NCBI GenBank assembly: GCA_964616825.1
Contig: CAZTSX010000010.1
Location: 525-64,524, forward strand
Direction of reading: 5' to 3'
Source: an uncultured Prolixibacteraceae bacterium
GTDB lineage: Bacteria > Bacteroidota > Bacteroidia > Bacteroidales > FEN-979
Length of the DNA stretch: 64,000 nucleotides
Positions within the stretch are counted from its first letter, which is position 1. Every line of letters begins with the position of its first letter. Below, piece by piece: positions 11,182 to 60,297 of this stretch. The notes beneath the pieces are model-generated. The model saw only the letters and a list, made by a program, of their open reading frames with translations. It made no database searches and was not told the DNA's origin. The position numbers and the translations under genes were made by a program.

Positions 11182-11248
11182 TCACTTATTCACCATTTCA
11201 CCACCTCACCATTACTCACCAACTCACCAGTTCACCAGTTCACTAGTT
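11182..11248. repeat. Imperfect 8-bp tandem array (TCACCA core) containing the stop codon of the upstream Fe-S flavoprotein gene
   Basis: TCACCA-type cores at 11182, 11190, 11198, 11206, 11216, 11224, 11232 and 11240; TGG TGA at the end of 11224..12801 is one unit. Confidence 0.85.
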
Positions 11249-12801
11249 CTATCTGCCAACGCCCCGGTGGGACATCCCTCCACACAAGACTGCGCTGTTT
11301 TAACCAATCCTTCCTGCATGGTTTTACTGAAAGGCACTGTGATCCTTACGTCAAAACCTCTGCCAATATAAGCCAACCCCAATGTTTCTCCATCTTTTTG
11401 CGTGATCTCCACACACAATCCGCACCGGATACATTTTTCTGGCTCGTAGACCACCAGGTCATGTTGCAGGTTCCTTGTCAGCTGATTCCTTTCTGCTGCA
11501 TCAAACCGTCTCTTGTTAACCCCGTATTGATCGGAAAATCTCCTCAACTTACAACTTACCGGCTTGCGGCAGTCGCAATGCATGCACCGCTGGGCTTCTC
11601 GGATTGCCTCATCCTGAGTAAATCCGGTCAGGTATCCCGACCCGGGATCGGTTCTTTCCTCAAAAGAAGCCTCCTGCATATACTCTTTGTTCTCTTCCTC
11701 TTTTAGCGGGCCGATGGATGAATTGAACATCGGCGTTCTACGAGGGATTGTTTCCCCTGAAAGATAGGCATCAGCCTCGAGTGCAGCTTTTTTTCCCTGG
11801 GCTACCGATCTTACGGATAGCAGCTGTTCGGAGATGATGCTGCCACAACCAAACACACCCGGCTTGCCTGAAGCAAAACTTTTTTTATGGATGACCGATT
11901 CATATTCCAAAATCGGCAAGTCAAATTCATCTACGGGGTGCTCCTCGCTAAATCCGGTTGCCAGGATCACCGCATCGAACCCGGGGAGGATCTCCTTATC
12001 CCACTTCTTCCCGGTAACCGGATAGTTAAGCTGAAACTCGCCTCCAAGTGCGCGAATGGATTCGATATCGGCATCGAGCATTTCTTTGGGAAGAAGATCA
12101 TCAGGGATACGATAACGCAGCGCTCCTCCGGCCTGTTCGTTTTTATCAAAAAGCGTACAGGCGTGACCTTGCTGAAGAGTATAAAACGCCGCTGCCAGTC
12201 CGGCCGGACCGGTACCGATCACAGCTACCTGTTTTCCGCTTTTTTCTGAGACCACCTCCAGGCCGGTTTTCCGAATGGCTTCATCCTGTGCTGTATATCG
12301 TTTCAACAGACAGATCGAGACCGGCTCATCAACCTTTTTCCTGCGGCAGGCTTTTTCGCAGGGGGCCGGACAGATATATCCGAGTATCAGAGGGAGAGCG
12401 ATCTCTTCCCTGACTACCCGAAGCGCTTCTTCATTCCTGTTAGCGGTAATCAATCTGTTCATCAGGGGTATGTTCATGAAGGCCGGGCACGAGATACGGC
12501 AAGGGGCCTCGCAATCCCCAACATGATCGCTTAGGAGCAGCTCCAGAGCCTCTTTCCGTGCTTCCATCACCTCTTTGGCAGATGCTGAAAGATTCATTCC
12601 GTCTGCGACAGGCATAGCGCAGGAGGGGAACAGTGTGCCACGATCAAGATCCTTAACCAGGCATACCATGCAAGAGGGGTGGTTGGAGTGGCCCGGCAGG
12701 TAACAGAGAGAGGGAATTTCGATTCCCTTCAGTGCCGCAGCCTGCATGACGGTCATGCCCTGCTCCACTTCTATAGCTGTATGGTCAATCGTGATGTGCA
12801 T
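11224..12801 (-). CDS. Fe-S flavoprotein, StnC/NfnA/SfrB-like: 2Fe-2S domain, GltD-type Fe-S/FAD module and HydA/NuoG-type 4Fe-4S region; NAD(P)H domain apparently absent
   Basis: 2Fe-2S motif SLC..PSCMVC..PSC; GltD-type CEAPCRISCP and ICPAPCEKACRR; FAD motif IGTGPAG; CMHCDC..SC and CIRCGLC...CPTGAL. No second GGGxxA Rossmann motif. Confidence 0.82.
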   Translation of the reverse strand: MHITIDHTAIEVEQGMTVMQAAALKGIEIPSLCYLPGHSNHPSCMVCLVKDLDRGTLFPSCAMPVADGMNLSASAKEVMEARKEALELLLSDHVGDCEAPCRISCPAFMNIPLMNRLITANRNEEALRVVREEIALPLILGYICPAPCEKACRRKKVDEPVSICLLKRYTAQDEAIRKTGLEVVSEKSGKQVAVIGTGPAGLAAAFYTLQQGHACTLFDKNEQAGGALRYRIPDDLLPKEMLDADIESIRALGGEFQLNYPVTGKKWDKEILPGFDAVILATGFSEEHPVDEFDLPILEYESVIHKKSFASGKPGVFGCGSIISEQLLSVRSVAQGKKAALEADAYLSGETIPRRTPMFNSSIGPLKEEENKEYMQEASFEERTDPGSGYLTGFTQDEAIREAQRCMHCDCRKPVSCKLRRFSDQYGVNKRRFDAAERNQLTRNLQHDLVVYEPEKCIRCGLCVEITQKDGETLGLAYIGRGFDVRITVPFSKTMQEGLVKTAQSCVEGCPTGALADRTSELVNW

Positions 12802-12804
12802 GGG

Positions 12805-15162
12805 TTAACTGATCATAATCGCATCTTCCGGACATGCCTGGCGGCAGATGTCGCACTTGATACATTTTTCCTTATCGATAACATGTTTTTCAAAAGGTGT
12901 GTATTCGATTGCTTCCGATGGACAACGCTGGGCGCATTTGGTGCAACCGATACATTCGTCAGTAACAGAATAGCTGATCAACGGTGCACATTTTCCGGCG
13001 GGGCACTTACCCTGAAGATGAGCTTCATACTCTTCCCTGAAATAGGTCAGTGTCGATAACACGGGATTAGGGGCCGATTTGCCCAATCCGCATAAGCTGC
13101 CTCTTTTGGTGGATCCCGCCAGGTGTTCCAGGTTGTCGAGATCTTCAGGGACACCTTTTCCATTTCGGATCTTCTCCAGTAATTCCAGCATTCGTCTCGT
13201 TCCAATCCGGCAAAAGGTACATCTTCCACACGACTGGCTCTGGGTGAAGGATAAAAAATAGTAAGCGATATCCACCATACAGTCATCTTCTTCCAACACA
13301 ACCATTCCGCCCGATCCCATCATCGATCCAACTTCAATGAGGGCTTCGAAATCAACCGTCAGATCGGCCAGAGAGGCTGGGATACAACCTCCCGAGGGTC
13401 CTCCGATCTGCACTGCTTTGAAACTTTTCCCTTTAGCAATCCCGCCGCCAATCTCTTCGACAATCTGCCGGATGCTCATTCCCATCGGAACCTCGATTAA
13501 ACCGCCTCTGTTTATCTTGCCGGCCAGGGCAAAAACCTTGGTCCCTTTGCTATTATTTATTCCAATACGTGCAAATGCTTCCGCTCCATGCCGGATGATC
13601 CAGGATATGAACGCGAAGGTCTCCGTGTTGTTCACAAGCGTTGGCTTGCCGTTTAATCCTTTCAGGGCCGGATAGGGTGGCCTGATACGTGGCTGGCCAC
13701 GATTCCCTTCCACTGAAGCGATAAGAGCTGTCTCTTCCCCGCAAACAAACGCTCCGGCTCCCTCAAAAATCCGGATATGAAACGAGAAGCCGCTTCCCAG
13801 GATATTCTCTCCCAGGAATCCGGCATCAGAACATTTGGTGAGTGCTTCTTTCACCCGGCTCACAGCTAACGGGTATTCAGCCCGGATATAGAAGATCCCT
13901 TCTGTAGCTCCTGTTGCGAATCCCGCAACAGTCATCCCTTCGATGACGCGGTAGGGATAAGATTCCAGGATCATCCGGTCCATAAATGCGCCCGGATCTC
14001 CTTCGTCACCATTGCAAATGATTAATTTTGAGGAATCCTCCTGGTCTTTCACCAGCTGCCACTTCCTCCCTGTAGGGAATCCGGCGCCACCGCGACCACG
14101 AAGACCACTCGCAGAGATCACATCGATTACATCCTGCGGAGAAAGTTCCTTCAAACATCCGGACAGCGCTTCAAATCCTCCCGATCGCTTGTATTCTTCA
14201 AGGTCTGTTGGGCGTATTACTCCCCTGTTCTCTGTAGCAATATTCATTTGAGGACCAAGAAATTCTTCCACCGGAGTGCCACGTTCTTCAGCCTGGTATC
14301 GCCTGACCGATAGTGGAGATCCATCGTTAAGGATCTGCTCAAATAGTCCGATCACATCTAACTTCATCCGGTGAATGAGCCCTTCCGGTCTGAAATGGTT
14401 CAAGACTACCTCCTTCACCTCTTCAGGTTTGATCTTTGCATAATAAGCTACCGGCTCCCCGGATTTGACCACCTCCAGGACCGGTACCTGGTGACAGATC
14501 CCCACGCATCCTACCTGCTTCACCTCCACGTGGATACGGGCATCAGCCAGTGTCTTCTCCAGTTCTGATTTCACCTCTGAACTGCCACTGGCAATACAGC
14601 AGGATCCCAATCCGATCCGGATCTCACCCTGACCATTTGGCTCAGCCTGTTCTATGGGCAAATCATCCAATTTCCGGTTGGCTTTGTGAAGCAGGAAGTC
14701 CTGAAGGATCCCGCCTGCTTTTTCCGGTACCACCTGTCCGTAAGTGACCGAATCGATCCGTATCACGGGAGCAATGGTGCAACAACCCAGGCAGGCGACT
14801 TTGCTGATAGTAAAGAGACCCTGGCTATCGGTATCTTCCAATCCTGTAAGGTTCAACTCCCGGCGGAAAGCATCATAAACCTTTGAAGCTCCTTTCATAT
14901 GACAGGCTGTACCGGTACACACTTTGATGCTGTGCTTTCCGGCAGGCTGATGCCGGAACTGCCCGTAAAAAGTGGAGATGCCGGTGATACGTGAAGGGGT
15001 GATTTCAGTGGTGGCACATACCTTCTCAAGGGCCTCCTCAGGAAGGTAATTGAACTCTTCCTGGATCGCCTGTAAAATCGGGACTACCGCATCCACAGTT
15101 TTCCCGTGAACATCGACAATTCTCTCGACAATCTCGTTTATTTTATGTTCGGTTTCCGGCAC
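12805..15162 (-). CDS. NuoE-NuoF (HydC-HydB) fusion, NADH-binding FMN/Fe-S subunit of the electron-bifurcating type
   Basis: NuoE 2Fe-2S motif CTGTAC..CLGCC; thioredoxin-like Fe-S domain SCC..CVGIC; FMN motifs SGLRGRGGAGFPTG, NGDEGDPGAFMDR, GAGAFVCGEETAL; SCGRCTFC..LCGLG; H..CPAGKC; C-terminal 2x4Fe-4S. Confidence 0.9.
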   Translation of the reverse strand: MPETEHKINEIVERIVDVHGKTVDAVVPILQAIQEEFNYLPEEALEKVCATTEITPSRITGISTFYGQFRHQPAGKHSIKVCTGTACHMKGASKVYDAFRRELNLTGLEDTDSQGLFTISKVACLGCCTIAPVIRIDSVTYGQVVPEKAGGILQDFLLHKANRKLDDLPIEQAEPNGQGEIRIGLGSCCIASGSSEVKSELEKTLADARIHVEVKQVGCVGICHQVPVLEVVKSGEPVAYYAKIKPEEVKEVVLNHFRPEGLIHRMKLDVIGLFEQILNDGSPLSVRRYQAEERGTPVEEFLGPQMNIATENRGVIRPTDLEEYKRSGGFEALSGCLKELSPQDVIDVISASGLRGRGGAGFPTGRKWQLVKDQEDSSKLIICNGDEGDPGAFMDRMILESYPYRVIEGMTVAGFATGATEGIFYIRAEYPLAVSRVKEALTKCSDAGFLGENILGSGFSFHIRIFEGAGAFVCGEETALIASVEGNRGQPRIRPPYPALKGLNGKPTLVNNTETFAFISWIIRHGAEAFARIGINNSKGTKVFALAGKINRGGLIEVPMGMSIRQIVEEIGGGIAKGKSFKAVQIGGPSGGCIPASLADLTVDFEALIEVGSMMGSGGMVVLEEDDCMVDIAYYFLSFTQSQSCGRCTFCRIGTRRMLELLEKIRNGKGVPEDLDNLEHLAGSTKRGSLCGLGKSAPNPVLSTLTYFREEYEAHLQGKCPAGKCAPLISYSVTDECIGCTKCAQRCPSEAIEYTPFEKHVIDKEKCIKCDICRQACPEDAIMIS

Positions 15163-15239
15163 GCTGATTATATTCTTTTTCTTCTTTTAACCAATGGAAA
15201 GCAGATGACACGGATTTAAATCAGTGTTCAATTTTATCT

Positions 15240-17069: not shown

Positions 17070-17086
17070 AACTCAAAGGGGCCTTA

Positions 17087-18952: not shown

Positions 18953-18953
18953 A

Positions 18954-30231: not shown

Positions 30232-30792
30232 TTACAGACCGATTTCCTCCGCCACAGGCAACATTGATTCGATCGCCAGGGCGGCAAATTCGGGTAACGG
30301 AATCCCGATTTTTTCACACTCCAGGATGATTTCCCGATTTACTGAGGCAGCAAACGCCTTCGCTTTCATTCGTTTCACAACCGACTTTGGCTTTACGCTG
30401 GAAAGTTTTTTATCCGGATAAACGTAGGTGGTTGCAAAAATTAACCCGGTAATGGTCTCTCCCGCAGCCAGCGCATGCTGGAATTCAGTGTGCCGGTCTT
30501 TCCCTGAAGAGCATTCGTTGTGCATCCGGATCACATCCAGGATCTCCGGATCGACATCATAATCCTTCAGTAACACCTCCGTCTGGGTACCATGAGCTGT
30601 CGGTTCGGCGTTCGTGACCTCCACATCCAGGTCGTGCAGCAACCCAGCCATCGCCCATTTTTCCTCATCCCTGCCAAGTCTCCTGGCCAATCCCCTCATG
30701 ACGGCTTCTGAGGCGAGAGAGTGAAAGATCATTTTTTCGTTCTTGATATGAGTGTTGATTAATTCAATGGCTTGTGCTCTGGTTAAAGGCAT
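30232..30792 (-). CDS. HD/HDIG-domain metal-dependent hydrolase
   Basis: HSLASE...GLLHDLD...H motifs; SVVKRMK.KAFAA.V.R segment typical of this family. Confidence 0.85.
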   Translation of the reverse strand: MPLTRAQAIELINTHIKNEKMIFHSLASEAVMRGLARRLGRDEEKWAMAGLLHDLDVEVTNAEPTAHGTQTEVLLKDYDVDPEILDVIRMHNECSSGKDRHTEFQHALAAGETITGLIFATTYVYPDKKLSSVKPKSVVKRMKAKAFAASVNREIILECEKIGIPLPEFAALAIESMLPVAEEIGL

Positions 30793-30809
30793 GTGTTAAA
30801 ATAATTAAT

Positions 30810-30950
30810 TGGCGAACTGGTGAATTGGTGAACTAGTGAGTTGAAGATTTTTAAACAAAAGTATTACCTTTTTGAAATATCTGGATTAATGAAGAAAATC
30901 ATAAAAAATAACTCACCAACTTGCAAGCTCACCAATTCGCCAACTCACCC
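30810..30950. repeat. Inverted pair of 8-bp tandem arrays (TGGTGA cores ... TCACCA cores) between divergent genes
   Basis: Cores at 30810, 30818, 30826 and 30834; reverse-complement cores at 30913, 30929, 30937 and 30945. Confidence 0.8.
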
Positions 30951-31035
30951 TCTCAAATACAGCATTTTACAAAAAAAGTGCTGCCAAACATATAACCTTT
31001 TACCCCTGAACCGGATTAATGTCTAAAAATTGAAC

Positions 31036-33522: not shown

Positions 33523-33759
33523 ATGAAAAAGAATTGGAAAGTAATTGGTTTGGGGATTATTTGCTGGGCAGGGATCTCCATTTCGGGATGGGCAGATCCA
33601 CCGGATACCCCCCCTCCTATGCCTGGTAATCATGGCCAGAATGGAAATGCACCTGTAGGAGCACCAATTGATGGCGGACTGGGAATCTTACTGGCGCTGG
33701 GTGCTACTTATGGAAGCAGAAAGGCGTATCAAGCGTGGAAGAAAAAACGTGAGACGTAG
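33523..33759 (+). CDS. Small PID-CTERM sorting-domain protein
   Basis: Signal peptide, short Pro/Gly spacer, PIDGGLGILLALGATYG plus basic tail. Confidence 0.78.
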   Translation: MKKNWKVIGLGIICWAGISISGWADPPDTPPPMPGNHGQNGNAPVGAPIDGGLGILLALGATYGSRKAYQAWKKKRET

Positions 33760-33771
33760 GACGTGAGACGT
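33747..33771. repeat. 7-bp tandem array (GAGACGT) containing the PID-CTERM stop codon
   Basis: acgt-gagacgt-aggacgt-gagacgt between convergent genes. Confidence 0.6.
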
Positions 33772-33777
33772 ATCTTA

Positions 33778-49526: not shown

Positions 49527-52500
49527 ATGAGATCACTACATGTGCTTATCGCCCTATCGTTTGTAGTAACTGGTCATGCGGAAATACGGTCATACGGTCA
49601 TCCAGTCATGGCATCAACTCCCTTATTCACCTGGTCACCCGTTCACCTGATTACTTGTTCACCTGTTCACCTGTTCACCAGTTCACTCAATCGAGATTAC
49701 CAAAAGCAATGGGCAAAAGTCGACTCACTCACCAAATCGGGACTTCCCCGGTCAGCTTTGAAAGTTGTCGATAAAATATATTCCCTGGCGAATTCAGAGA
49801 AAAACAATCCCCAGGTGGTCAAAGCAATCCTCTACCGGCTCAGGCTGAATTCCGATTTTCAGGAAAATTTTCCTGTTCATGCCATCCGGGAGATTCAAAA
49901 GGAGATTGCCATTTCACAGGAGCCTGTTAAACAGATTCTGCACTCCATCCTCGGAGAGCTCTGCTGGAACTATTTCCGGATGAATCAATACCGTTTTCAA
50001 AATCGCACTTTCATTCCCGATAATCAATCAGATGATCCGGAAACATGGGATCTCAATACACTGGCCTCCCAGATCATCCTCAACTACAGATTGTCCCTAT
50101 CTAATGATATCGTATTACAGGATATCCCTATTGAGCAATTTCAAGCTATTCTTGATCAGCCTGTTCTTGCTGAAGGAGAATCAGATCCAACACCTGAGTT
50201 TCGCCCTACACTCTTTGATTTCCTGGCCCACCGGGCACTTGACTTTTTTACAACATCGGATCTCCTTTTAAATCAATCCGTCTATACATTCAGTCTGGAT
50301 AATGCAGCTTTCTTTGATCCAGCTCAAAAATTTATCAACTACCCCCTCCAGTCCAAAGGGATTCATTCACGGTCCGGTGATGGTTCGTTTATCCCACCAG
50401 AAAATGATACCTTATCACTTCCCTGGTATGCGATTCGGATATTTCAGGCACTTGATCAGTTTCACATTAACGATAAAAATCCCCGTGCATTGATAGATGT
50501 GGAGCTTGACCGCTATGCATATGTTCTGAATGAAAGCACGTTACCAGCGAAAGATAGCATCTACCTTCAAGCCTTGCAGCAATTTGAACAGGATTATACC
50601 TATTCCCCTTTTTCAACTGAAATTTCATTTGTTATAGCTGAAAAACTGATACAAGAAGGAGCAACATACGATCCTCTGGTCTCAGATAGTCATAAGTGGG
50701 ATCTGAAAAAGGCCCTTCAGATATGTATTCAGGCGAATGAAAAATTTCCCGATGCTGACGGGAGTAGGGCATGCCGGAGACTCATCAAGGAGATCAAAGA
50801 GCCTTCCCTGACAATTACATCAGAATATGCTATTATCCCTTCCCGGCCAGCGTTAATCTCATTGGGATTTAAAAATGTTTCAGCATTACATTTCAGGATG
50901 GTAAAAGCTAATCCGGATCAATTTCCGTCGGCTCTTTCGGGATTGAAGCAAGCACAGATTCTCAACTACCTGGCCCGTCTGGAAATGGTATCCGACTGGT
51001 CTGTTTCATTGCCTTCCGACGGCGATTACCAGGAGCATCAAACAGAGATATCAATCCCTGCAGTTGAACCGGGTTTCTACATCCTTTTCTCTTCATCAGA
51101 CTCCTCCTTTCAAAATCCTGAAATGCCATTTACCTATCAATCTCTCTGGTCATCACAAATCAGTTATGTTACGCAGCGTATAGCTACCGGAGGGGTTGAT
51201 GTTTATCTTTTGAACAGGGACAGCGGCAGGCCTTTACCAAACTTGCTTGCTGAATCCTATTCCAGGAGCTATAACTCCAGGGAGAGAGTTTATACCACAA
51301 CGAAAACAGGCGAATATCATTCAGATGCTTCCGGATTTTTCTCAATTCCGGCTCCAGAAAAACGCGGCATCCATACCAATCTCTACCTGAAGATCCACTC
51401 GAAAAAGGATCTGTTGATTACCGAATCATTTTATCTCTATCCTGCCGTTACAAAAGCAACCAGGACCGTTGAGCAGACACGGTTTTTCACCGACCGTGCG
51501 ATATACCGGCCGGGACAAATTATCTATTTTAAAGGGATTATACTGGAGCGGACTGGAGATTCGTCCTCTTTGAAAACAAACAAAACAACCCGTGTTGCAT
51601 TCACTGATGTGAATGGACAGAAGATTTCAGAACAGACCTTCACTACCGATTCCTATGGCGCTTTCAATGGCTCCTTTATTGCTCCGGGTGGTGTGTTATT
51701 GGGCGATATGCGTATCTTCAATGAGTCGGGTTCCATTACTCTTTCCGTGGAAGAGTATAAAAGGCCCACTTTTGAAGTGCTGTTTGATCCAATAGAAGGA
51801 AATTATAAATTGGGAGAGAAGGTGACGGTGATTGGCAAGGCAATCGGGTATGCCGGGAATGCTGTCGATGCCGGCAGTGTCAGTTTTCGTATAGTACGAA
51901 CCGCCCGTTTCCCTTTTTGGAACCGGATGTGGTACTACCCCTTTCCCTCTTCCCCCGAAACAGAGATCATCAACGGTACTGTTATCACGCAACCTGACGG
52001 ATCGTTTACCATTTCCTTTGATGCGATCCCTGACCTCACCGTGCCGGCCCAGACCAAGCCGGTATTCACATTCCAGGTTTATGTCGATGTAACCGATATC
52101 AATGGGGAGACCCGTTCGGCACAAGAGTCGATATCGGTAGGCTATATTTCACTGATTATCGATATCGAAATTCCTGAAAAACTGAATCTTAAAAAAGTAT
52201 CTGCACTCTCACTCAGCACAACCAACCTGAATGGCAGGCCCACTCCTTCCGATGTACAAGTTGTCCTGTCCAGATTGGATGAGCCGGAACGAGCGTTCAA
52301 AAAACGTCTTTGGGGCCGTCCTGATCTTACCCTCATGTCGGAAGAGGAATTTTATTCTCAATTTCCGAACGATATTTATGAAAACGACGATGACCCGGCG
52401 ACCTGGAAAATATCGTCAACGGTATTCGATAAGGTGTTGAACACCTCCAGAGATACCCTGTTGAATTTCGCAGATACCGGATGCCGGATACCGGATGCCG

Positions 52501-55500
52501 GATATTATAAAATCGAATTGAGTGCGACTGATCCTTTCGGCCAAAAAGTTGAAAAAACACTCTATTTCATTGCATTTGATCCGGATAGCAATCAGATTCC
52601 TGTTCCCGAAATGAACTGGTTTGTTCCATTACAGATCGAAGGAGAGCCGGGAGAGCAAGCCTCCTTTCTTATTGGCACCAGTGAAAAAAATGTACAGGTT
52701 ATCTGGGAAATCCGGGTGAAAGATCAGCTCCAATCCAGGGAGTGGATCAAACTCAACAACCAGCAAAAAAAGATCGAGATTCCGATCCTGGAAGCATACC
52801 GGGGTAATTTCTCGGTGAATTTTCTCTTTGTCAGGGATAACAGGGTATACCAGAACAGCCAGGTGATCACAGTTCCCTATACAGATAAAAAACTCGACAT
52901 CACATTTGAAACATTCCGGAACAAGCTGATCCCGGGACAACATGAAGAGTGGAAGATTTGGATCACCAATGCCGATAAAGAGGGGGTTGAAGCCCAATTT
53001 TTAACCACAATGTATGATCGTTCTCTTGACGTTTTCAGGAGTAACTCATGGACTTTCGATCTTTACCGAAAATTCTATTTCAACGATCCGTGGGAGATCC
53101 ATAATGATTTCAGAACATCAGCAAATTCCTGGTACTCAACCTGGTCCCATGAAGTTGTCTCTCCCCGTGAATATGACCGGTTGAACTGGTTTGGAATTCG
53201 GGTAGCACAGCCTTTCTACTCACGATCGGGAGGATTAAAAGGAGTATACATGGTGGAAAAGATGGATGCCCCGGAAGCCGAACCTTCTATGGGTGGCAAC
53301 GAAGATGTTGTGCCTCCTCTTTCTCACGATCAAACCAAATCAGGAAGTAGCACTAGCCAGGATGTACCGGTAATTCCGATTCGGAAAGATTTTAGTGAAA
53401 CAGCGTTTTTCTATCCATCCCTGACCACAGATTCAGACGGGAGGTTATATCTGAAATTCACCGTGCCGGATGCATTGACCTCCTGGAAATTGCTCGGCCT
53501 TGGCTACACCAAACAGCTTGATTACGGATTGATTGAGAAAGAGCTGATCACCCGGAAGGACCTGATGGTATTTCCCAATCCGCCCCGTTTTCTCAGGCAG
53601 GGGGATACCATTGTGTTCAGTGCTAAGATTGTCAACCTGAGCAATCATGAGATCAGTGGTGAATCAATGCTCAATTTGTCGGAAGCAGTTACGTTACAAC
53701 CATTAGATAATTTGATCCTGGATCCTGGATCCTGGATGCCGGATAGCAAATTCTTCACTATTCCCGCCGGTCAGAGTGCCGGTGTCTCCTGGACCATCGC
53801 TATCCCGGTTACGAACATCATAAGCCTGTTGAAATACCGTGTCACAGCACATGCAGGAAATTTCAGTGATGGAGAAGAGAACACCATCCCGGTGCTCACC
53901 AATCGAATGCTGGTCACCGAGTCGCTCCCGTTACCGGTCAGAGGGCAAGGTACATTCAATTTTACGTTCGATAAATTAAAAAACTCCGCTTCCCAGCCAG
54001 ATGCCACTCTGGAAAACTACAGGCTGACACTTGAATTTGCCTCGAATCCTGCCTGGTATGTAGTTCAGGCATTGCCCTCTTTGAATGAAGTGATCTATAA
54101 AAATGCCGGTCAAATCTTCGGGGCTTTCTATGCGAATGGTTTAGCTGCACATATTGCTAACTCACGGCCGGAGATCCGACTTGTATTTGAGAGCTGGAAA
54201 GCATTGACACCAGATGCTCTGGTATCGAATCTGGAAAAGAATGAGGAACTCAAAACAGCGATCCTGGAGGAGACACCCTGGGTGATAGAGGCTAAAAGCG
54301 AAACCCAGAACAAGCGTCGGATAGGATTATTTTTCGACATGAATAACCTGGAAAATAACCTGAAGCAAAACCTTTCAAAACTCATCGAGATGCAGAAACA
54401 TTCAGGTGGCTGGCCATGGTTTGAAGGGATGCGTGAGAGCCGGGTGATCACATTAAACATCTTGACCGGACTTGGTCGCCTTAAGCATCTGGGAGCCAGA
54501 TATGCTTTGCAGGAGGCCCAGGTGTCTGCGATGATCAAACGTGCCATTCAATACCTGGACGAGGAATTGGTCAACGATTATGAAAAACTGAAAAAAAGAT
54601 TTCCTAAAAAGTTGAACCAGAATCACCTGACGCCCCTTCAAATAAAATACCTCTATGCCCGAAGTTTTTTCAAACAGATACCGGATCCCGGATTCCGGAT
54701 CCCGGATTCATCATCCAGCATCAACCAAGTGCTGCAATACTATACTTTCCAATCTAAAATGTACTGGTTAAAGCAGGACATCTACTCCCAGGGGATGATT
54801 GCACTTGCGTTGAACCGCACTGGAGATCGTGATATTTCGTTGAAAATTCTGCAATCACTGAACGAAAAAGCGTTGCATTCGCCTGAGATGGGAATGTATT
54901 GGGCAACGCAAAATGGCTATGAGTGGTACCGGGCTCCGATTGAAATCCAGGCCTTGTTGATCGAAGCGTTTGATGAGATTGTTAATGACCGGAAATCTGT
55001 TGAAGAGATGAAAATCTGGCTGTTGAAACAGAAACAAACCCAGATGTGGCGAACCAGGCAGGCAACGGTGGATGCCTGTTATGCACTGCTCTTAAGAGGG
55101 GTAAATCTGCTTGCAGACGATCCACAAGTATCCATTACCATCGGTGACTTGAAGATTGATCCTTCGAAATTGACCGATTCAAGAACAGAGGCTGGAACCG
55201 GGTATTTTAAGATGTCGTGGATGGGAGATCAAATCAAGCCGGATATGAGTACCATTCAGATTACAAAATCGACGGATGGTATTGCCTGGGGCGGATTGTA
55301 CTGGCAGTATTTCGAAAACCTCGATAATATCACCCCGCATGAAACACCATTAACGGTTGAGCAACAATTATTTCTTGAGAAGAACACTGAATCCGGTCCA
55401 GTATTAGAAAAGATACCGGATGCCGGATATCAGAAACCAGATTCAATATCCAACATCCAACATCCAACATCTCTTGAAGTGGGAGATAAAGTCATTGTCC

Positions 55501-55847
55501 GCATCCTTTTAACGGTAGATCGAACCATGGAGTTCGTCCATCTGAAAGCTATGCGTGCATCCGGTCTGGAGCCATTTTACTCACTTAACTCACCAGCTCA
55601 CCAGCTCACCAGCTCACCACTCTCCGGCTATCGATACCAGGATGGGTTGGGCTATTACCAGTCGACAACGGATGTGGCGACAAACTTCTTTTTTGACAAC
55701 CTGCCCAAAGGAACCTATGTGTTTGAATACCCGCTTGTGATAAATAATGCCGGAAACTTCTCTAATGGAATCACAACGGTTCAATGCATGTATGCTCCGG
55801 AATTCTCATCACATACAGAAGGAGTCAGGATTGAGGTAACGAAGTAG
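49527..55847 (+). CDS. Bacterial alpha-2-macroglobulin family protein
   Basis: 2106 aa; FTDRAIYRPGQ (MG2), EEYKRPTFEV, RKDFSETAFFYP, PDALTSW, Q..SGGWPWF, G.FSNG...VQCMYAPEF. Confidence 0.92.
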   Translation: MRSLHVLIALSFVVTGHAEIRSYGHPVMASTPLFTWSPVHLITCSPVHLFTSSLNRDYQKQWAKVDSLTKSGLPRSALKVVDKIYSLANSEKNNPQVVKAILYRLRLNSDFQENFPVHAIREIQKEIAISQEPVKQILHSILGELCWNYFRMNQYRFQNRTFIPDNQSDDPETWDLNTLASQIILNYRLSLSNDIVLQDIPIEQFQAILDQPVLAEGESDPTPEFRPTLFDFLAHRALDFFTTSDLLLNQSVYTFSLDNAAFFDPAQKFINYPLQSKGIHSRSGDGSFIPPENDTLSLPWYAIRIFQALDQFHINDKNPRALIDVELDRYAYVLNESTLPAKDSIYLQALQQFEQDYTYSPFSTEISFVIAEKLIQEGATYDPLVSDSHKWDLKKALQICIQANEKFPDADGSRACRRLIKEIKEPSLTITSEYAIIPSRPALISLGFKNVSALHFRMVKANPDQFPSALSGLKQAQILNYLARLEMVSDWSVSLPSDGDYQEHQTEISIPAVEPGFYILFSSSDSSFQNPEMPFTYQSLWSSQISYVTQRIATGGVDVYLLNRDSGRPLPNLLAESYSRSYNSRERVYTTTKTGEYHSDASGFFSIPAPEKRGIHTNLYLKIHSKKDLLITESFYLYPAVTKATRTVEQTRFFTDRAIYRPGQIIYFKGIILERTGDSSSLKTNKTTRVAFTDVNGQKISEQTFTTDSYGAFNGSFIAPGGVLLGDMRIFNESGSITLSVEEYKRPTFEVLFDPIEGNYKLGEKVTVIGKAIGYAGNAVDAGSVSFRIVRTARFPFWNRMWYYPFPSSPETEIINGTVITQPDGSFTISFDAIPDLTVPAQTKPVFTFQVYVDVTDINGETRSAQESISVGYISLIIDIEIPEKLNLKKVSALSLSTTNLNGRPTPSDVQVVLSRLDEPERAFKKRLWGRPDLTLMSEEEFYSQFPNDIYENDDDPATWKISSTVFDKVLNTSRDTLLNFADTGCRIPDAGYYKIELSATDPFGQKVEKTLYFIAFDPDSNQIPVPEMNWFVPLQIEGEPGEQASFLIGTSEKNVQVIWEIRVKDQLQSREWIKLNNQQKKIEIPILEAYRGNFSVNFLFVRDNRVYQNSQVITVPYTDKKLDITFETFRNKLIPGQHEEWKIWITNADKEGVEAQFLTTMYDRSLDVFRSNSWTFDLYRKFYFNDPWEIHNDFRTSANSWYSTWSHEVVSPREYDRLNWFGIRVAQPFYSRSGGLKGVYMVEKMDAPEAEPSMGGNEDVVPPLSHDQTKSGSSTSQDVPVIPIRKDFSETAFFYPSLTTDSDGRLYLKFTVPDALTSWKLLGLGYTKQLDYGLIEKELITRKDLMVFPNPPRFLRQGDTIVFSAKIVNLSNHEISGESMLNLSEAVTLQPLDNLILDPGSWMPDSKFFTIPAGQSAGVSWTIAIPVTNIISLLKYRVTAHAGNFSDGEENTIPVLTNRMLVTESLPLPVRGQGTFNFTFDKLKNSASQPDATLENYRLTLEFASNPAWYVVQALPSLNEVIYKNAGQIFGAFYANGLAAHIANSRPEIRLVFESWKALTPDALVSNLEKNEELKTAILEETPWVIEAKSETQNKRRIGLFFDMNNLENNLKQNLSKLIEMQKHSGGWPWFEGMRESRVITLNILTGLGRLKHLGARYALQEAQVSAMIKRAIQYLDEELVNDYEKLKKRFPKKLNQNHLTPLQIKYLYARSFFKQIPDPGFRIPDSSSSINQVLQYYTFQSKMYWLKQDIYSQGMIALALNRTGDRDISLKILQSLNEKALHSPEMGMYWATQNGYEWYRAPIEIQALLIEAFDEIVNDRKSVEEMKIWLLKQKQTQMWRTRQATVDACYALLLRGVNLLADDPQVSITIGDLKIDPSKLTDSRTEAGTGYFKMSWMGDQIKPDMSTIQITKSTDGIAWGGLYWQYFENLDNITPHETPLTVEQQLFLEKNTESGPVLEKIPDAGYQKPDSISNIQHPTSLEVGDKVIVRILLTVDRTMEFVHLKAMRASGLEPFYSLNSPAHQLTSSPLSGYRYQDGLGYYQSTTDVATNFFFDNLPKGTYVFEYPLVINNAGNFSNGITTVQCMYAPEFSSHTEGVRIEVTK
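49571..49688. repeat. Two in-frame 8-bp arrays at the A2M N-terminus (CGGTCATA x5; GTTCACCT x8)
   Basis: 49571-49610 and 49625-49688, imperfect units read directly from the sequence. Confidence 0.8.
52472..52506. repeat. In-frame 7-bp array (GGATRCC x5) in A2M
   Basis: agatacc ggatgcc ggatacc ggatgcc ggatatt. Confidence 0.8.
53714..53748. repeat. In-frame 7-bp array (GATCCTG x3 plus variants) in A2M
   Basis: gatcctg gatcctg gatcctg gatgccg gatagca. Confidence 0.8.
54676..54724. repeat. In-frame 7-bp array with inverted tail in A2M
   Basis: agatacc ggatccc ggattcc ggatccc ggattca tcatcca gcatcaa. Confidence 0.8.
55411..55473. repeat. In-frame 7-bp array with inverted tail in A2M (nine units)
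   Basis: agatacc ggatgcc ggatatc agaaacc agattca atatcca acatcca acatcca acatctc. Confidence 0.8.
55579..55625. repeat. In-frame 8-bp array (AGCTCACC) in A2M
   Basis: actcactt aactcacc agctcacc agctcacc agctcacc actctcc; same core as the arrays at 11182, 30913 and 60189. Confidence 0.8.
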
Positions 55848-55912
55848 TGAGTAAGCGAGAAGTGAAAATTTCGCTATTTCGTTATTTCGTTATTTCGCTA
55901 CCTCGCTATTTT
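55837..55912. repeat. Inverted pair of 8-bp arrays (TAGCGAAA / TTTCGCTA) spanning the A2M stop
   Basis: taacgaag tagtgagt aagcgaga, then tttcgcta tttcgtta tttcgtta tttcgcta cctcgcta. Confidence 0.75.
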
Positions 55913-55946
55913 GTACATTTGTCTCTTCAATTTCAACGATATCACT

Positions 55947-57692
55947 ATGCTTCGAACTCATACCTGTGGAGAGCTCCGCATATCCCAAACCGGTCAGAAC
56001 GTTTCTCTTTGCGGATGGATACAACGAAACCGGGAAATGGGTGGATTGACCTTCATCGACCTGCGTGACCGTTACGGGATCACACAACTTGTATTCAATA
56101 TGGAGCTAAACGACTCTCTTTGCGCGGAGGCCCGGAAGTTAGGACGTGAGTTTGTGGTCTGCATTCAGGGAAATGTGGCAGAACGTTCCAATAAAAATCC
56201 GAAAATTCCGACCGGTGATATCGAAATTCTCGTTGAAAAGCTGACCATTTTAAACACCTCCAAAGTCCCTCCTTTTACTATTGAAGATCATACCGACGGC
56301 GGGGAAGAGCTCCGGATGAAATATCGCTATCTCGATCTCCGCAGGGATGAGAATAAAAGGAATATGTTGCTCCGGCACAGGATGGCAATTGAGGTCCGCA
56401 ATTACTTGAATTCTAAGAATTTTATTGAAATAGAAACGCCCTTTTTAATCAAATCCACACCGGAAGGAGCCCGTGATTATGTAGTTCCCTCCCGGATGAA
56501 TGAAGGGGAATTTTATGCGCTTCCGCAATCTCCTCAAACCTTCAAACAATTGCTGATGATTGCCGGGTATGATCGCTATTTCCAGATTGTCAGGTGCTTC
56601 CGGGATGAAGACCTGCGCGCTGACCGCCAACCGGAATTTACCCAGATTGATTGTGAAATGTCGTTTGTAAACCAGGATGATATCCTGAATACGTTTGAAG
56701 GGCTGGCCACACACCTGTTCAAAACAATCCTTGATGTAGATTTATCTGATTTTCCTCAGATACCTTATGAAGAGGCTATCAAACTCTATGGGTCCGACAA
56801 ACCTGATATCCGCTTTGGGATGACTTTTATTGAGCTGAATACCCTGATGATAGGAAAAGGATTTAAGGTATTTGATGATGCCGGCCTGGTAGTTGGAATA
56901 AAAGCAGAAGGATGTGGAGATTACTCCCGCAAGCAGCTGGATGCATTGACCGATTTCGTTAGAAAACCTCAGGTAGGCGCTACCGGTCTGGTCTATATCA
57001 AATACAATCCTGATGGATCGATCAAATCATCAGTCGATAAATTTTATTCTCCGGAAGATCTGAAACCTGTTCTGGATGAATTCCAGGCCAAACCTGGTGA
57101 TCTGATCCTGATCCTTGCTGGTGATCCCGATCAAACCCGATCTGCGATGAGCGATTTGCGATTGGAGATAGGAAAAAGATTAAACCTGATGATTCCGGGT
57201 GAGTTCAGGCCACTTTGGATCGTCGATTTTCCTTTATTGGAATGGGATGAAGAGAGCCAGCGATATCATGCAAAACATCACCCGTTTACATCACCCAAAG
57301 AGGGAGATATTCCAATTCTTGAATCCGATCCTGTTTCAGTACGGGCCAATGCCTACGATTTGGTTATCAACGGTGTTGAGATCGGTGGGGGTTCTGTCAG
57401 AATTCACAATAAAGAGCTTCAGCAACAGCTATTCAAGGTGCTTGGTTTCTCCGATGAAGAGGCAGCCGCACAGTTCGGATTTCTGATGAATGCCTTTGAA
57501 TACGGCGCTCCTCCTCATGGGGGTATTGCGTTTGGCTTCGATCGTTGGGTCACTTTATTCGGTGGGGGTGAATCCATCCGTGATTTTATCGCCTTTCCGA
57601 AAAACAATGCAGGAAGAGATGTGATGATCGATTCCCCCTCCACGCTCAGTAACGAACAGCTAAACGAGTTGGGAATAAAAACTACGAAGTAG
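55947..57692 (+). CDS. aspS: Aspartate--tRNA ligase
   Basis: [60 protein letters not shown]. Confidence 0.97.
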
Positions 57693-57711
57693 CGAAATCC
57701 AGGTCGTTTTA

Positions 57712-58578
57712 TTATCGAATATACCCGGTTTGAAGGCGTAATGAAATCGAGCTGGCCAATGTTGATACAGCCATTCTTATCAATGATCCTAAATCTTGAT
57801 CTTCCTCAAAATTAGGGGCATGGATGCTTTGAACCCGATGGTATTGAACCATGTTTATGTAAGAGTGCTGGGCTCTTTTGTTGTCTTCAGGACTGAAAAC
57901 CCCAAAACTAGACGCTTTGTGGGCAGCTAAGAGAGAAAAACAGGGGACATCGTTATATCCATCGCCCAGGTAAATCATATTCTCAATCGGAATCCTTCGT
58001 TCGCCTGGTGGAATAAAGGTGTTTATCGCAAATGGATCAACCAATGCATCACGATAACGAATTCCTTTATTGATTTCGAAAATATATCGGGTTTTCTCTG
58101 TATAGGTAATAGCGCGTTTAATGTTTGAAAGAATGGGCGGATCTCCCTCTTCATCCAACATACATCCATAAAACCCATAGAAATAATCATTTACAATATT
58201 ACTTCCGCTGATAATTGCATGTAGTCCACCTGAAATTATATAGAATTCAATAGCTATGAGTTCGTTAATCTCTTTGACAATCGTTTTGAGATCATCGAAC
58301 AGTTCAGGAATGCCGGGGTAAAAGAGTGAATCAAGTGTTGCGCCAAATTCGTTCAGTTGCTGATTGTTCAACTCCCCTAATGGTCTCCCTTTTCCCACTA
58401 AATCGAGTAAAAGCTTGATGTAAGCTAAGGTCGGATCATATCCCTTTGTAACTAATTTTGTGTAGGTGTCTTGCCAAAATTGGTTTGTGTCTACCCCAAA
58501 TTTTTCAAGTAACAAATTCGTGGAATCAGGTACCAATGTGTCATCGAAATCGAATATGACTGCAATGATGTTTGACAT
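57712..58578 (-). CDS. HAD-superfamily hydrolase (AT-rich gene)
   Basis: Motif I FDFDDT, motif II ISGG, motif IV YLGDGYNDVP. Confidence 0.8.
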   Translation of the reverse strand: MSNIIAVIFDFDDTLVPDSTNLLLEKFGVDTNQFWQDTYTKLVTKGYDPTLAYIKLLLDLVGKGRPLGELNNQQLNEFGATLDSLFYPGIPELFDDLKTIVKEINELIAIEFYIISGGLHAIISGSNIVNDYFYGFYGCMLDEEGDPPILSNIKRAITYTEKTRYIFEINKGIRYRDALVDPFAINTFIPPGERRIPIENMIYLGDGYNDVPCFSLLAAHKASSFGVFSPEDNKRAQHSYINMVQYHRVQSIHAPNFEEDQDLGSLIRMAVSTLASSISLRLQTGYIR

Positions 58579-58629
58579 ATCCTATACATTAATTAGACTT
58601 CTTGGTTACTCTCTTTTTATTTGTCTCAA

Positions 58630-59007
58630 TTATTCATTAAGCTCAGCTTCCATCCTTTCACGGTCTTCTACAGAGAGGTGCGGGCAATCGACCAGGGCTT
58701 TGTTCATCTCTTTTTTGAATTTCTTCCCAAATTCCTGGTCCGAGATCTTATCGCCATATTTATCCTGAAATTCCTTGTTGAGAATAGTCATCTCAACCGT
58801 TATCTGATGTTTTTCGGCTTCATATTTGTGGATGTTCAGGGAATCACCTTCTTCCCTGGCTGCTTTCAGATTATTCTGGACCTCAATGAACTTGCACATG
58901 GTTTCACCCAAAGGAGCTACATCCTCTTTCAGTTGGTTGTTTCCACATCCTGATAATCCAAAAATGGCCAGAGCCAGAATCGCGATTGCGATCGTTTTCA
59001 TTTTCAT
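58630..59007 (-). CDS. Hypothetical lipoprotein
   Basis: Lipobox LSGC after a hydrophobic signal; helical body with two further Cys. Confidence 0.75.
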   Translation of the reverse strand: MKMKTIAIAILALAIFGLSGCGNNQLKEDVAPLGETMCKFIEVQNNLKAAREEGDSLNIHKYEAEKHQITVEMTILNKEFQDKYGDKISDQEFGKKFKKEMNKALVDCPHLSVEDRERMEAELNE

Positions 59008-59030
59008 TTTATGTATTATTTAGTTTTTTG

Positions 59031-59038
59031 CAAAGGTA
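59031..59038 (-). promoter_or_regulatory. Bacteroidota -7 element (TACCTTTG) upstream of the lipoprotein gene
   Basis: TAnnTTTG match 24 nt upstream of the start. Confidence 0.5.
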
Positions 59039-59105
59039 AGATTTTTCTTTTCTGCAGAATATTTCTATTTTTATCTGTGTAATCCGTTGTTAATACCTTC
59101 TCATT

Positions 59106-60194
59106 ATGAAAAAGAACTTCGTTTTTCTTCTCCTGGCATGTAGTTGGAGTCTTTTCTCTTTTTCGCAGAACGAAAATTCATCTGTTCAGGAAGAGATCAT
59201 TGAGTTGAAATCAGATCTCCGCGATCTCTCTTTTGATATTGATCGTGTCCGGAAAGCTGTCGACGACATTCGCTGGTACAATCGTGTGGGTGATGTTGCT
59301 TTCATTGACAAAGTGTATATCACAGGCCCTCCTATCAACCAGGAGACAGTAACAAATGAGACCGCCATGGGGGTGAAAAATCCGATTAAATTTTACGCTT
59401 ATGTATTCGTCCCGAAAGGAATTGATGGCAGTAAAAAATATCCCCTGCTGGTCTTTCCGCATGGAGGCGTTCATGGCGACTTTACCACGTATTATGCACA
59501 TATCGTACGGGAGATGATGGCTCAGGGGTATATTGTGATCGCACCGGAATATCGGGGAAGCACCGGATATGGGAAATCATACTGGGAGCGGATCGACTAC
59601 GGCGGACTGGAGGTGGAAGATGCTGATGCCAGCCGGAATTATATGGTGGAGAACTATTCTATTGTCGATAAAAACCGGATCGGAATCCTCGGCTGGAGTC
59701 ATGGTGGAATGATCTCATTGTTGGCTGTATTCAACCATCCTAACCACTACAACGTCTGTTTCGCCGGTGTTCCCGTCAGCGACCTGATCTCCCGGATGGG
59801 GTATCAGGATGATAATTATCGGGCTCTCTACTCTGCCGATTATCATCTTGGGAAAACAGCACAGGAGAATGTTGAGGAGTACAAACGCCGATCTCCAGCC
59901 TGGAATACACACAAACTGAAAACACCTCTGTTGATCCATACCAATACCAACGACGATGATGTCAATGTACTGGAAGTTGAGCACCTGATCAAAGGCCTGA
60001 AAGCGGATGGAAAAACGTTTGAATATGAAATATTTGAAGAGGTGGAAGGAGGTCATTCATTCGACCGTATCGACACCAAGACCGCTAAAGAGATACGCCT
60101 GAAGATTTACTCTTTCCTCGACAGGTATCTGAAACCTCCCAGACCCATAAAAACAATCGGGGAGCTCGATCGGGCAGCATATATGAGTTGGTGA
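59106..60194 (+). CDS. S9 family (prolyl oligopeptidase-like) serine hydrolase, exported
   Basis: Signal peptide; PHGGVHG, YRGSTGYG, GWSHGG nucleophile motif, DDDV, GGHSF. Confidence 0.9.
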   Translation: MKKNFVFLLLACSWSLFSFSQNENSSVQEEIIELKSDLRDLSFDIDRVRKAVDDIRWYNRVGDVAFIDKVYITGPPINQETVTNETAMGVKNPIKFYAYVFVPKGIDGSKKYPLLVFPHGGVHGDFTTYYAHIVREMMAQGYIVIAPEYRGSTGYGKSYWERIDYGGLEVEDADASRNYMVENYSIVDKNRIGILGWSHGGMISLLAVFNHPNHYNVCFAGVPVSDLISRMGYQDDNYRALYSADYHLGKTAQENVEEYKRRSPAWNTHKLKTPLLIHTNTNDDDVNVLEVEHLIKGLKADGKTFEYEIFEEVEGGHSFDRIDTKTAKEIRLKIYSFLDRYLKPPRPIKTIGELDRAAYMSW

Positions 60195-60297
60195 GATGGT
60201 GAGATGGTGAGTTGGTGAGATGGTGAATTGGTGATGTGGTGATGTGGTGAGCTAGCGAGAACCGAGCATCGAGCATCGAATTCCGAGCATCGAGCAT
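60189..60297. repeat. Composite intergenic array: TGGTGA core x8 at 8-bp spacing, then CGAGCAT x5 at 7-bp spacing
   Basis: Cores at 60189-60245 in steps of 8; heptamers at 60263-60297; spans the whole gap between convergent stops. Confidence 0.88.

Follow-up and report, generated by a model that had tools for sequence, protein, structure and literature searches.

Dispersed tandem arrays of 7- and 8-nt units in spacers, at gene ends and within a conserved gene of a marine Bacteroidota lineage

A 64,000-nt stretch of DNA from an uncultured Prolixibacteraceae bacterium (GenBank assembly GCA_964616825.1, contig CAZTSX010000010.1, positions 525 to 64,524), referred to below as the window, carries about 15 short tandem arrays, recognised with Tandem Repeats Finder (TRF) and a lag scan, whose periods are 7 and 8 nt only. 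They are found in spacers, at gene ends and, in frame, inside a gene of the alpha-2-macroglobulin (A2M) family. Their cores recur from locus to locus, they change by whole units within the species and turn over at orthologous sites between species, they evolve as DNA even where they are translated, and inverted pairs of arrays fold into strong predicted hairpins. We put at slightly better than even (roughly 0.55) the probability that they are satellite-like long simple sequence repeats (LSSRs) kept by slippage, homogenisation and inverted duplication wherever they are tolerated.

Results

Arrays of two periods recur as motif families

Arrays were called with TRF, taking rows of period 7 and 8, and by direct read-out of the sequence (Table 1). 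A first-pass annotation of this DNA, made from the letters alone, had described dispersed families of imperfect 7- and 8-nt arrays and had named shuffled sequence as their control. This control was run and gave essentially none: at a TRF score of at least 40, 11 rows of period 7 or 8 were present in the window compared to 0 in 100 dinucleotide-preserving shuffles, and TRF rows of every kind numbered 45 compared to 9.6 in shuffles. A second, unbiased control, a scan of self-identity at lags 4-12, returned four periodic segments at lag 7 and six at lag 8, and 0 segments at lags 4-6 and 9-12 (shuffles, at most 0.02). Units of 7 nt and of 8 nt each account for about half of the arrays, and higher-order periods of 14, 16 and 24 nt were detected by TRF. 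The arrays at 33747 and 57138 are marginal (TRF score 31). An assembly artefact is ruled out by identical arrays in independent JGI and ENA assemblies.

The arrays lie where they had been annotated and read as described, with the exception of 57682, where only one unit is present; the array at 6601 precedes the range (from 11182) given for the feature. A strictly kept period had also been claimed, and this fails at 11189, where the array is broken by a 2-nt insertion (7% indels in TRF). The recurrence of the same cores at distant loci holds in the window, in relatives and, for the TCACCAAY unit, in another phylum. When units were counted as alike at no more than two mismatches under any rotation or strand, 13 of the 28 pairs of octamer arrays were alike, whereas 2000 null draws averaged 2.1 and never exceeded 9 (P<=0.0005); for the heptamer arrays, family recurrence gave P ~0.007.

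Arrays change by whole units and turn over at orthologous sites

Syntenic loci of four other species were compared with the window, among them L001, L002 and L003 (L-numbers denote compared loci and P-numbers compared proteins), whose A2M proteins are 87%, 77% and 77% identical to its own. At orthologous loci, the sites that carry arrays are the same; copy numbers differ, as do the units in some cases. Where the S9 peptidase and STAS genes converge, the spacer holds two to three TGANNTGG units in relatives vs 8.5 in the window. At the 60263 site, the relatives carry heptamer doublets, AGGATCC AGGATCT in L001 and two copies of GTATCTA in L002, each with the flank ATCTAG in common; different heptamers with a shared flank are what local seeding predicts. 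Within A2M, the array at 49572 is present as the same array in L003, as a different array in L001 and not at all in L002. The 49626 site carries a 7-nt TCACCAG array in L003, an 8-nt CCAACTCA array in L001 and nothing in L002. On the 3' side of the 53714 array, the heptamer differs by relative (AAATCGA in L002, CAATATC in L003 and a reversed GGCATCC in L001). The 54677 array is shorter in L002 by exactly 21 nt, or three units, and 21 nt are missing from the 55411-55471 site in L002 and L003. Length differences between species within A2M are 21 nt (three heptamers) and all in frame.

Near-identical assemblies of the same species, together spanning positions 20-64 kb of the window, differ at 14+61 single-nucleotide polymorphism columns and by one indel. 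This sole indel is one extra 8-nt unit, in L088, in the longest array (60184-60251). Among five of these assemblies, the window and L085-L088, it stands alone in ~24 kb, and no indel was found in the A2M coding arrays.

Coding arrays evolve as DNA

Seven arrays lie in frame in the A2M open reading frame (ORF; 49527-55847, 2106 aa); their peptides include FTWSPVHLITCSPVHLF and the in-frame peptides of Table 1 from the 52473 array onwards. Between the window and L002, identity inside these arrays is 0.82, 0.84 and 0.80 at codon positions 1, 2 and 3, compared to 0.83, 0.90 and 0.57 in the rest of A2M, and by simple arithmetic on counts the third positions of the arrays lie ~3.4 standard deviations above the conservation expected from the gene. 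The near-equal identity at the three codon positions indicates that the arrays evolve as DNA-level objects and not as codons. In L003, the core reads CAGG instead of CCGG throughout an array and the unit next to the flank still reads CCGG, which is a classic signature of concerted evolution; the periods of 14, 16 and 24 nt point the same way. Two A2M sites co-vary by lineage, with ATCCAGG-type units in L003 and CCGGATN units in the window, L001 and L002. As proof of conversion between loci, the L003-specific units are weakened by ATCCAGG-type peptides in more distant A2M homologs, which leave the direction of change unfixed, so that the co-variation alone stands.

Substitutions within units are partly focused. 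The 60184 array has a perfect TCACCA core in eight units with four different NN, and the differences between the window, L001 and L002 at 52473 and 54677 all fall on the N position; an unbiased count places only about half of the unit substitutions at the 'variable' positions. The annotation had argued that pure slippage would give perfect repeats. This is too strong, since a one-unit indel is seen and homogenised variants and higher-order periods are normal satellite dynamics.

The coding arrays fall in variable loops of the protein. In an AlphaFold model limited to A2M residues 1650-2106 (mean predicted local distance difference test score, pLDDT, 64; moderate), the arrays 54677, 55411 and 55589 fall in coils of pLDDT<50 between secondary-structure elements, and in an alignment of 40 homologs, the arrays occupy indel-rich columns flanked by conserved blocks. 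Many homologs down to ~55-60% identity have other translated 7/8-nt arrays at the equivalent sites (SGIRHPAS, DTGYGIRD, HHLTISP, HQSPVTS, RDEGRGT) and those further off have short ordinary loops there; the motif families of the window are confined to one clade of homologs. The bait region was considered as the array site and rejected, the arrays lying outside the A2M_BRD match. The start of A2M is ambiguous: the ORF opens at 49527 with a signal-peptide-like sequence (MRSLHVLIALSF..) and the public call, P0001 (2079 aa), begins 27 codons later, within the GGTCATAC array, so that the array-encoded linker probably misleads start prediction. One further array, at 6600, is in frame in a minus-strand FtsX/MacB-like permease ORF (4677-8015; ..GNGIRNQAS..).

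Inverted pairs form predicted hairpins

Hairpin strength was assessed as folding energy and as z against shuffles. Arrays followed by their reverse complement, reported in the annotation together with a possible role as RNA hairpins, were confirmed at 30807/30910 and 55837/55868. The pair at 30805-30952 has a folding energy of -41 kcal/mol, with z = -6.1 whichever strand is folded, and the pair at 55836-55912 one of -23 kcal/mol (z = -3.8). Hairpin formation is thereby supported for some arrays; direct arrays are unstructured (z ~0).

The hairpin at the 3' end of A2M is kept in the window, L001, L002 and L003 with different arm lengths and copy numbers, and L002 shows a matching unit change in both arms (TAGTGAAA/TTCACTA for TAGCGAAA/TTCGCTA). 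In all four species it is followed by a TAnnTTTG-type box before aspS, and a simple terminator scan flags 55854-55875 with a T-rich tail. A kept hairpin, followed by a box and then aspS, is plausibly a terminator or insulator.

The 30807/30910 pair brackets the promoter box of an HD gene (30232-30792, minus strand), which places the TCACCANN array in the HD leader. The HD region was compared in L098-L100: in the window, L098 and L099, the array follows the TAnnTTTG box and precedes the ATG on the minus strand, and it is absent from L100. In the window and in L098, a variant unit with TCGCCA appears in one arm of the pair and, mirrored, in the other, which points to inverted duplication of a block of several units. 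The boxes adjoining the arrays are -7 boxes of the Bacteroidota type and are kept in relatives (TACATTTG at 55903-55910 before aspS; TACTTTTG in the region 30870-30880 before the HD gene).

The architecture of array, loop and complementary array is found with other units elsewhere in Bacteroidota, as AAATCAT in L057 and L066 and as inverted AATGTAA arrays directly 3' of the A2M stop in Chitinophaga japonensis (L081). The AAATCAT/ATGATTT hairpins of L057 (18405-18515, a Saprospiraceae metagenome-assembled genome, MAG) and L066 (1350-1460, a Ferruginibacter MAG) have opposite arm orders and represent another motif family common to two orders.

A TCACCAAY hairpin with a fixed arm order in GC-rich contigs

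Metagenomes were scanned with four TCACCANN units as the query, and at least 120 loci matched (L152-L271). The matches listed are mostly GC-rich (median 63%), the carriers of the element described here being soil and rhizosphere contigs of 60-69% GC, and at least some are acidobacterial by their neighbours (ADOP permease, acidobact_VWFA). The commonest units among them are TCACCAAC/TCACCAAT, as in the 30807/30910 pair. An inverted partner accompanies at least 27 arrays (23 unique pairs) and is always upstream: the arm order is 27:0 by a loose criterion and 12 loci to 0 by a stricter, strand-symmetric one. The element thus reads 5'-(TTGGTGAR)n - short AT-rich loop - (YTCACCAA)n-3', the reverse order never occurring among these matches, and the 30807/30910 pair has the same units and arm order. 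It measures ~80 nt with (TTGGTGAR)4 and (YTCACCAA)4 in L159 (4629-4705), L171 (2214-2298) and L234 (613-688). Loop ends are alike (..GAATTAAY) in many of the GC-rich contigs. Among the matches listed, the element lies 0-45 nt 3' of gene ends and all resolvable flanking genes point into it. Rfam 15 gave 0 matches in 15 hairpin-bearing metagenome loci. A literature search (15-mers; heptamer and octamer repeats in Bacteroidota) returned PMC4679880 as the only relevant paper and no match to the TCACCAAY hairpin.

Across 85 loci, 82 arrays have period 7, 41 period 8, 7 period 6 and 14 period 9; they are dense only in the clade of the window, and elsewhere sporadic and of other motifs. In viral contigs, the two main families of the window gave 18 and 11 stretches compared to 10 and 13 for permuted-core controls, so that a global enrichment of these motifs is not supported. 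As permuted cores are about as common, 7/8-nt arrays of many motifs appear to be a general phenomenon. An 800-bp intergenic stretch of a Calditrichia MAG (L029:8100-8900) carries at least five different arrays (ACTCAGA x18, ATTGCCTT x4.4, ~13-nt TTTCTCACTTTTG, ACTGCCTC and CTTACTGC x5); such clusters therefore occur outside Bacteroidota too. A protein search with six copies of DAGYRIP was uninformative and returned only mis-called ORFs over arrays; these 'hypothetical proteins' of 36-74 aa in public protein sets (P0241-P0277) are translated CCGGATN-type arrays, called spuriously as intergenic ORFs.

A stop-codon rule for array orientation, and arrays in spacers and at gene ends

The octamer families are free of stops in all three frames in one orientation only; turned the other way, three units suffice to bring a stop into each frame. 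Every coding array is in a stop-free orientation and the reverse octamer orientation closes two ORFs; the rule explains the orientations. On the minus strand, which is that of the gene, the 11189 array reads GGTGA. The first units of the array encode the final codons of an Fe-S oxidoreductase gene (11224-12801) and its TGA stop, and the rest forms the spacer before a PQQ beta-propeller gene. Similarly, the S9 peptidase gene takes its TGA stop from the first unit of the 60184 array. The TAGCGAAA-type left arm at 55837 overlaps the final A2M codons and provides the TAG stop; ACGAAGTAG is common to this gene end and to the aspS stop site (57675-57695). The left edges of the arrays 11189 and 55589 share TACTCACTTA.

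The weak 33747 heptamer array lies in a convergent spacer between the 3' ends of tadA and of a small ORF (33523-33759, plus strand, 78 aa), the end of which it overlaps. This ORF, located 3' of the gene for a G8/T9SS (type IX secretion system) protein, is annotated as PID_CTERM (PF28310) in public assemblies; our own Pfam scan of it gave no match at E<=0.001. A Chi-like role for TGGTG (resembling GCTGGTGG) is unsupported, as TCACCA and TGGTGA occur outside the arrays 20 and 23 times compared to ~16 expected, with no strand skew. Other resemblances are likenesses only: GGTGA to the HphI site GGTGA(8/7), ATTGG in AATTGGTG to a Y-box, and TCACCT and CTGGATC to the 16S rRNA 3' end.

Table 1. Tandem arrays and related features of the window
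Position	Strand	Feature	Remarks
6600..6620	+	GGATGCC TGATTCC GGATGCC, CCGGATN family	3 units; sequence read-out
11189..11249	+	octamer array TCACCANN	~7.4 units, one 2-nt insertion; TRF
30807..30843	+ (GGTGA orientation)	octamer array AATTGGTG/AACTGGTG	left arm of inverted pair
30910..30949	+	octamer array AACTCACC/AATTCGCC	right arm of inverted pair
33747..33772	+	ACGTGAG-type heptamer array	3.7 units, weak
49572..49609	+	octamer array GGTCATAC	4.8 units; A2M, between signal peptide and mature protein
49626..49686	+	octamer array TTCACCTG	7.6 units; A2M N-terminal linker (..FTWSPVHLITCSPVHLFTSS..)
52473..52504	+	GATACCG/GATGCCG heptamer array	perfect 14-mer x2.3; in-frame A2M (..DTGCRIPDAGY..)
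53714..53744	+	GATCCTG x3 + GATGCCG heptamer array	in-frame A2M (..LDPGSWMPD..)
54677..54711	+	GATNCCG heptamer array	4.4 units; in-frame A2M (..IPDPGFRIPD..); TRF row 54677-54709
55411..55471	+	degenerate GATNCCG run (55411-55443), then ATCCAAC/CAACATC heptamers x4 (55444-55471)	in-frame A2M (..IPDAGYQKPDSISNIQHPTS..)
55589..55619	+	octamer array CTCACCAG	3.9 perfect units; in-frame A2M bMG10 region (..SPAHQLTSSP..)
55837..55911	+	inverted octamer arrays	left arm TAGCGAAA-type, right arm ATTTCGCT x5.5 (TRF row 55868-55911)
57675..57695	+	ACGAAGTAGCGAAA	aspS stop codon; single TAGCGAAA-family unit, not an array
60184..60251	+	octamer array TGAGATGG (TCACCANN family, GGTGA orientation)	8.5 units, 24-nt higher-order period
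60263..60298	+	CGAGCAT heptamer array	5.1 units; adjoins stop codon of minus-strand STAS gene

Host and gene content

The host is a marine Bacteroidota MAG. The window encodes proteins sorted by the T9SS (Por_Secre_tail), and close homologs and syntenic loci all belong to Bacteroidota/Bacteroidales MAGs, the nearest named genome being 'Bacteroidetes bacterium NIOZ-UU56' (88%). Its genes are ordinary housekeeping genes (leuS, aspS, Fe-S oxidoreductases, PQQ beta-propellers, FtsX/MacB, truB, tadA), and a STAS protein and an aldehyde dehydrogenase are also encoded. Domain scans of the ORFs found no transposase, reverse transcriptase or nuclease gene in the window, none of the four-helix-bundle, GxxExxY or GIY-YIG genes that had been suggested as neighbours of the arrays is present in it, and Rfam 15 at the gathering threshold gave 0 matches there.

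The annotation had set the arrays against the short tandemly repeated repetitive (STRR) sequences of cyanobacteria, and this frame does not fit. The highly iterated palindrome HIP1 (GCGATCGC) has only two copies in the window, which together with the T9SS proteins and the purely Bacteroidota homologs rejects a cyanobacterial origin. STRR1 (CCCCAGT), STRR2 (TTGGTCA) and STRR3 (CAACAGT) occur in the window as 1-5 scattered single copies per strand and never as arrays, and the TAACTGA doublet TAACTGATAACTGA has 0 matches there with up to two mismatches allowed. L025 (CALRTD020000009.1), a contig labelled as a 'Synechococcus sp. UW140' MAG and possibly mis-binned, also carries an A2M gene of the Bacteroidota type, 41% identical to the query.

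Discussion

If the arrays are satellite-like LSSRs, they would be born by short local duplications or by copying from existing arrays, and would gain and lose whole units by slippage during replication or by unequal exchange. Concerted evolution in blocks of 14, 16 and 24 nt would homogenise each array, and an occasional inverted duplication, probably by template switching, would create hairpins with complementary array arms; slippage and template switching as the enzymatic basis are inferred, like any regulatory role. Selection would decide survival only, in intergenic spacers, at gene termini where the stop-containing orientation closes the ORF, at the junction of signal peptide and mature protein, and in disordered surface loops of A2M, where the stop-free orientation and length changes of three units would be tolerated. 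Some arrays would probably have been co-opted, such as the A2M-aspS hairpin, as terminator or insulator, and the element in the HD 5' leader. This account explains the unit-step polymorphism, the orthologous turnover, the units derived from flanks, the higher-order repeats, the independence from codons and the stop rule.

Several observations weigh against it. Slippage from local seeds does not account for the return of a few cores (TCACCANN, CCGGATN) at independent loci, variation is concentrated at one or two unit positions (60184, 52473, 54677), and arrays persist at the same sites down to ~55-60% protein identity. The TCACCAAY hairpin is found, among the matches listed, with equal units and one arm order (12:0 strict, 27:0 loose) on partly acidobacterial contigs, and the preference for 7-8 nt is without a demonstrated cause. 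Since unit size, few cores, focused variation and the cross-phylum hairpin are left unexplained, a binding partner and an element resembling the hairpins built from repetitive extragenic palindromic (REP) sequences, the REPINs, stay alive as explanations.

According to the first of these, which we regard as unlikely, the arrays are multi-site platforms for a single-strand nucleic-acid binder with a footprint of ~7-8 nt (a cold-shock-domain, S1-type OB-fold or other oligomeric RNA-binding protein). Selection would keep the core of the unit and leave one or two spacer positions free, slippage would affect copy number only, and control would be post-transcriptional, in leaders and at 3' ends. A unit made of a fixed core and variable positions fits this explanation, as do the TCACCANN array kept between box and ATG in the HD leader of three species, the lack of structure in direct arrays (z ~0), which single-strand binders need, and the same octamer at gene 3' ends across phyla; a comparable proposal exists for the TAACTGA repeats (PMC4679880). 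However, arrays face both ways with respect to transcription (the mRNA has GGUGA at 11189 and 60184), a regulatory role is difficult to assign to many arrays within a single ORF, that of A2M, no more than about half of the substitutions in units respect the supposedly variable positions, the HD leader of L100 is without the array, and no gene evidence pointing to a binding protein was found.

A process that writes or spreads the arrays had been proposed in the annotation. The recurring cores and the fixed arm order, which independent local slippage does not predict, are compatible with this, and the window holds no gene for such a process. In its specific form, the TCACCAAY family at least would be an actively propagated element, REPIN-like, templated or resembling miniature inverted-repeat transposable elements, that has moved between phyla with its trans-acting enzyme elsewhere in the genome; this we consider quite improbable. 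The arm order (27:0 loose and 12:0 strict among the matches listed), the similar loop ends (..GAATTAAY) of many GC-rich contigs and the 30807/30910 pair with the same units and order are consistent with it, and so are the restriction of the motif families to one clade of A2M homologs, the co-variation of unit type at two A2M sites (ATCCAGG-type in L003 vs CCGGATN in the window, L001 and L002) and the TACTCACTTA edge common to 11189 and 55589. Yet no transposase, reverse transcriptase or REP-associated tyrosine transposase (RAYT) was found in the window or its sequenced flanks, terminal inverted repeats and target-site duplications were not seen, and viral contigs show no excess over permuted controls. 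The history of the orthologous sites and the flank-derived units point to evolution in situ, and the cross-phylum likeness could be convergence on a stop-free motif prone to expansion.

That the coding arrays are contingency loci, where 7/8-nt slippage shifts the frame of A2M and other surface or secreted proteins to give phase variation, is highly improbable: the unit lengths are not multiples of three, the arrays lie in a gene for a secreted or surface protein and unit-step slippage is seen in the population, but the five A2M population variants have no coding-array indel and P0001 is identical on 28 contigs, the coding arrays are short and interrupted, the interspecies length differences are all in frame, and the polymorphic array (60184) follows a stop codon.

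A more speculative thought, to which we give low odds, is that the TCACCAAY periodic hairpin is an undescribed dispersed element of Bacteroidota and Acidobacteriota with a dedicated trans-acting partner, the direct arrays being its decay or expansion products. The partner may be a single-strand DNA transposase by which the hairpin is copied, or an OB-fold protein (footprint 7-8 nt) by which it is read. If true, this would give a concrete, testable molecular answer to a question that is decades old, that of where STRR-type repeats originate. The literature on dispersed heptamer families (STRR, TAACTGA and the Xanthomonas G4 repeats) goes back to 1990, and to our knowledge their origin has never been explained. 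One family that spans phyla with a fixed hairpin architecture makes phylogenetic profiling for the partner gene possible. The species of the window is present in dozens of public metagenome assemblies, so that slippage rates and out-of-frame variants are directly measurable, and arrays in a conserved gene separate constraint on DNA from constraint on protein (third-codon identity of 0.80 in arrays vs 0.57 elsewhere). In practice, public protein sets contain spurious small ORFs and odd loops of low complexity (DAGYRIPD, HHLTISP, SGIRHPA) that are translated from such arrays.

Among known repeats, two systems can be set aside at once. Clustered regularly interspaced short palindromic repeats (CRISPR) have 23-50-nt repeats with unique spacers of similar size, whereas the units here have 7-8 nt and are strictly adjacent. 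A diversity-generating retroelement, which pairs a reverse transcriptase with a template and a variable repeat, is rejected, as the large ORFs of the window encode no reverse transcriptase domain and variation within units shows no link to adenines. In REP elements, each arm is one imperfect palindrome and goes with a RAYT transposase. REP sequences, bacterial interspersed mosaic elements (BIMEs) and REPINs resemble the present hairpins in being dispersed and intergenic, with inverted pairs at gene 3' ends, as found here; in contrast, the arms in the window are tandem octamer arrays and no IS200/RAYT-like gene lies within it. Rickettsia palindromic elements are mobile palindromes of 100-150 bp in frame in genes. 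They share with the coding arrays the tolerance of DNA-level repeats at permissive surface positions of proteins, but the arrays here are tandem with 7/8-nt units.

STRR sequences are dispersed families of imperfect heptamer arrays in heterocystous cyanobacteria, of unexplained origin and function. STRR2 (TTGGTCA) differs at a single position from TTGGTGA, which is TCACCAA read on the opposite strand; unlike STRR, the arrays of the window have a Bacteroidota host, half of them are 8-nt arrays, and STRR1-3 are present as single copies only. The TAACTGA direct repeats occur in Beggiatoaceae, Cyanobacteria and a few Bacteroidetes, at many loci in distant phyla, often just 5' of starts or after stops, with no known transfer mechanism and with Csp/S1-type proteins proposed as binders (PMC4679880). 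The likeness lies in one short motif forming arrays at many loci across distant phyla; the window differs in its motif, in having several families, in its coding-region arrays and in its hairpins of inverted arrays. The G-rich heptamers GGGAATC and GGGGA(C/T)T of Xanthomonas and Nostoc form G-quadruplexes, four units being preferred (PMC4692102), and are likewise dispersed near ORF ends, overlap stops and vary in copy number, but the units of the window are not of the G-tract kind, and its direct arrays show no predicted structure.

The closest fit is with prokaryotic LSSRs of 5-11-nt units, for which a heptamer excess is given in the summaries of Mrazek 2007 in PMC4679880 and PMC4692102. As these summaries describe them, LSSRs share with the present arrays the short tandem units, the heptamer excess, the sporadic phylogeny, the mostly non-coding location and slippage as proposed origin; in the window, arrays exceed chance and copy number changes by whole units. 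Measured against the same summaries, the octamers as prominent as heptamers, the in-frame arrays in a conserved gene and the complementary inverted pairs are different. The arrays of the window belong with the prokaryotic LSSRs and, by sequence and by host, fall outside the STRR and TAACTGA families. What is new is their Bacteroidota setting, the co-dominance of octamers, the in-frame arrays that evolve as DNA at conserved loop sites, and a periodic-hairpin element common to Bacteroidota and Acidobacteriota.

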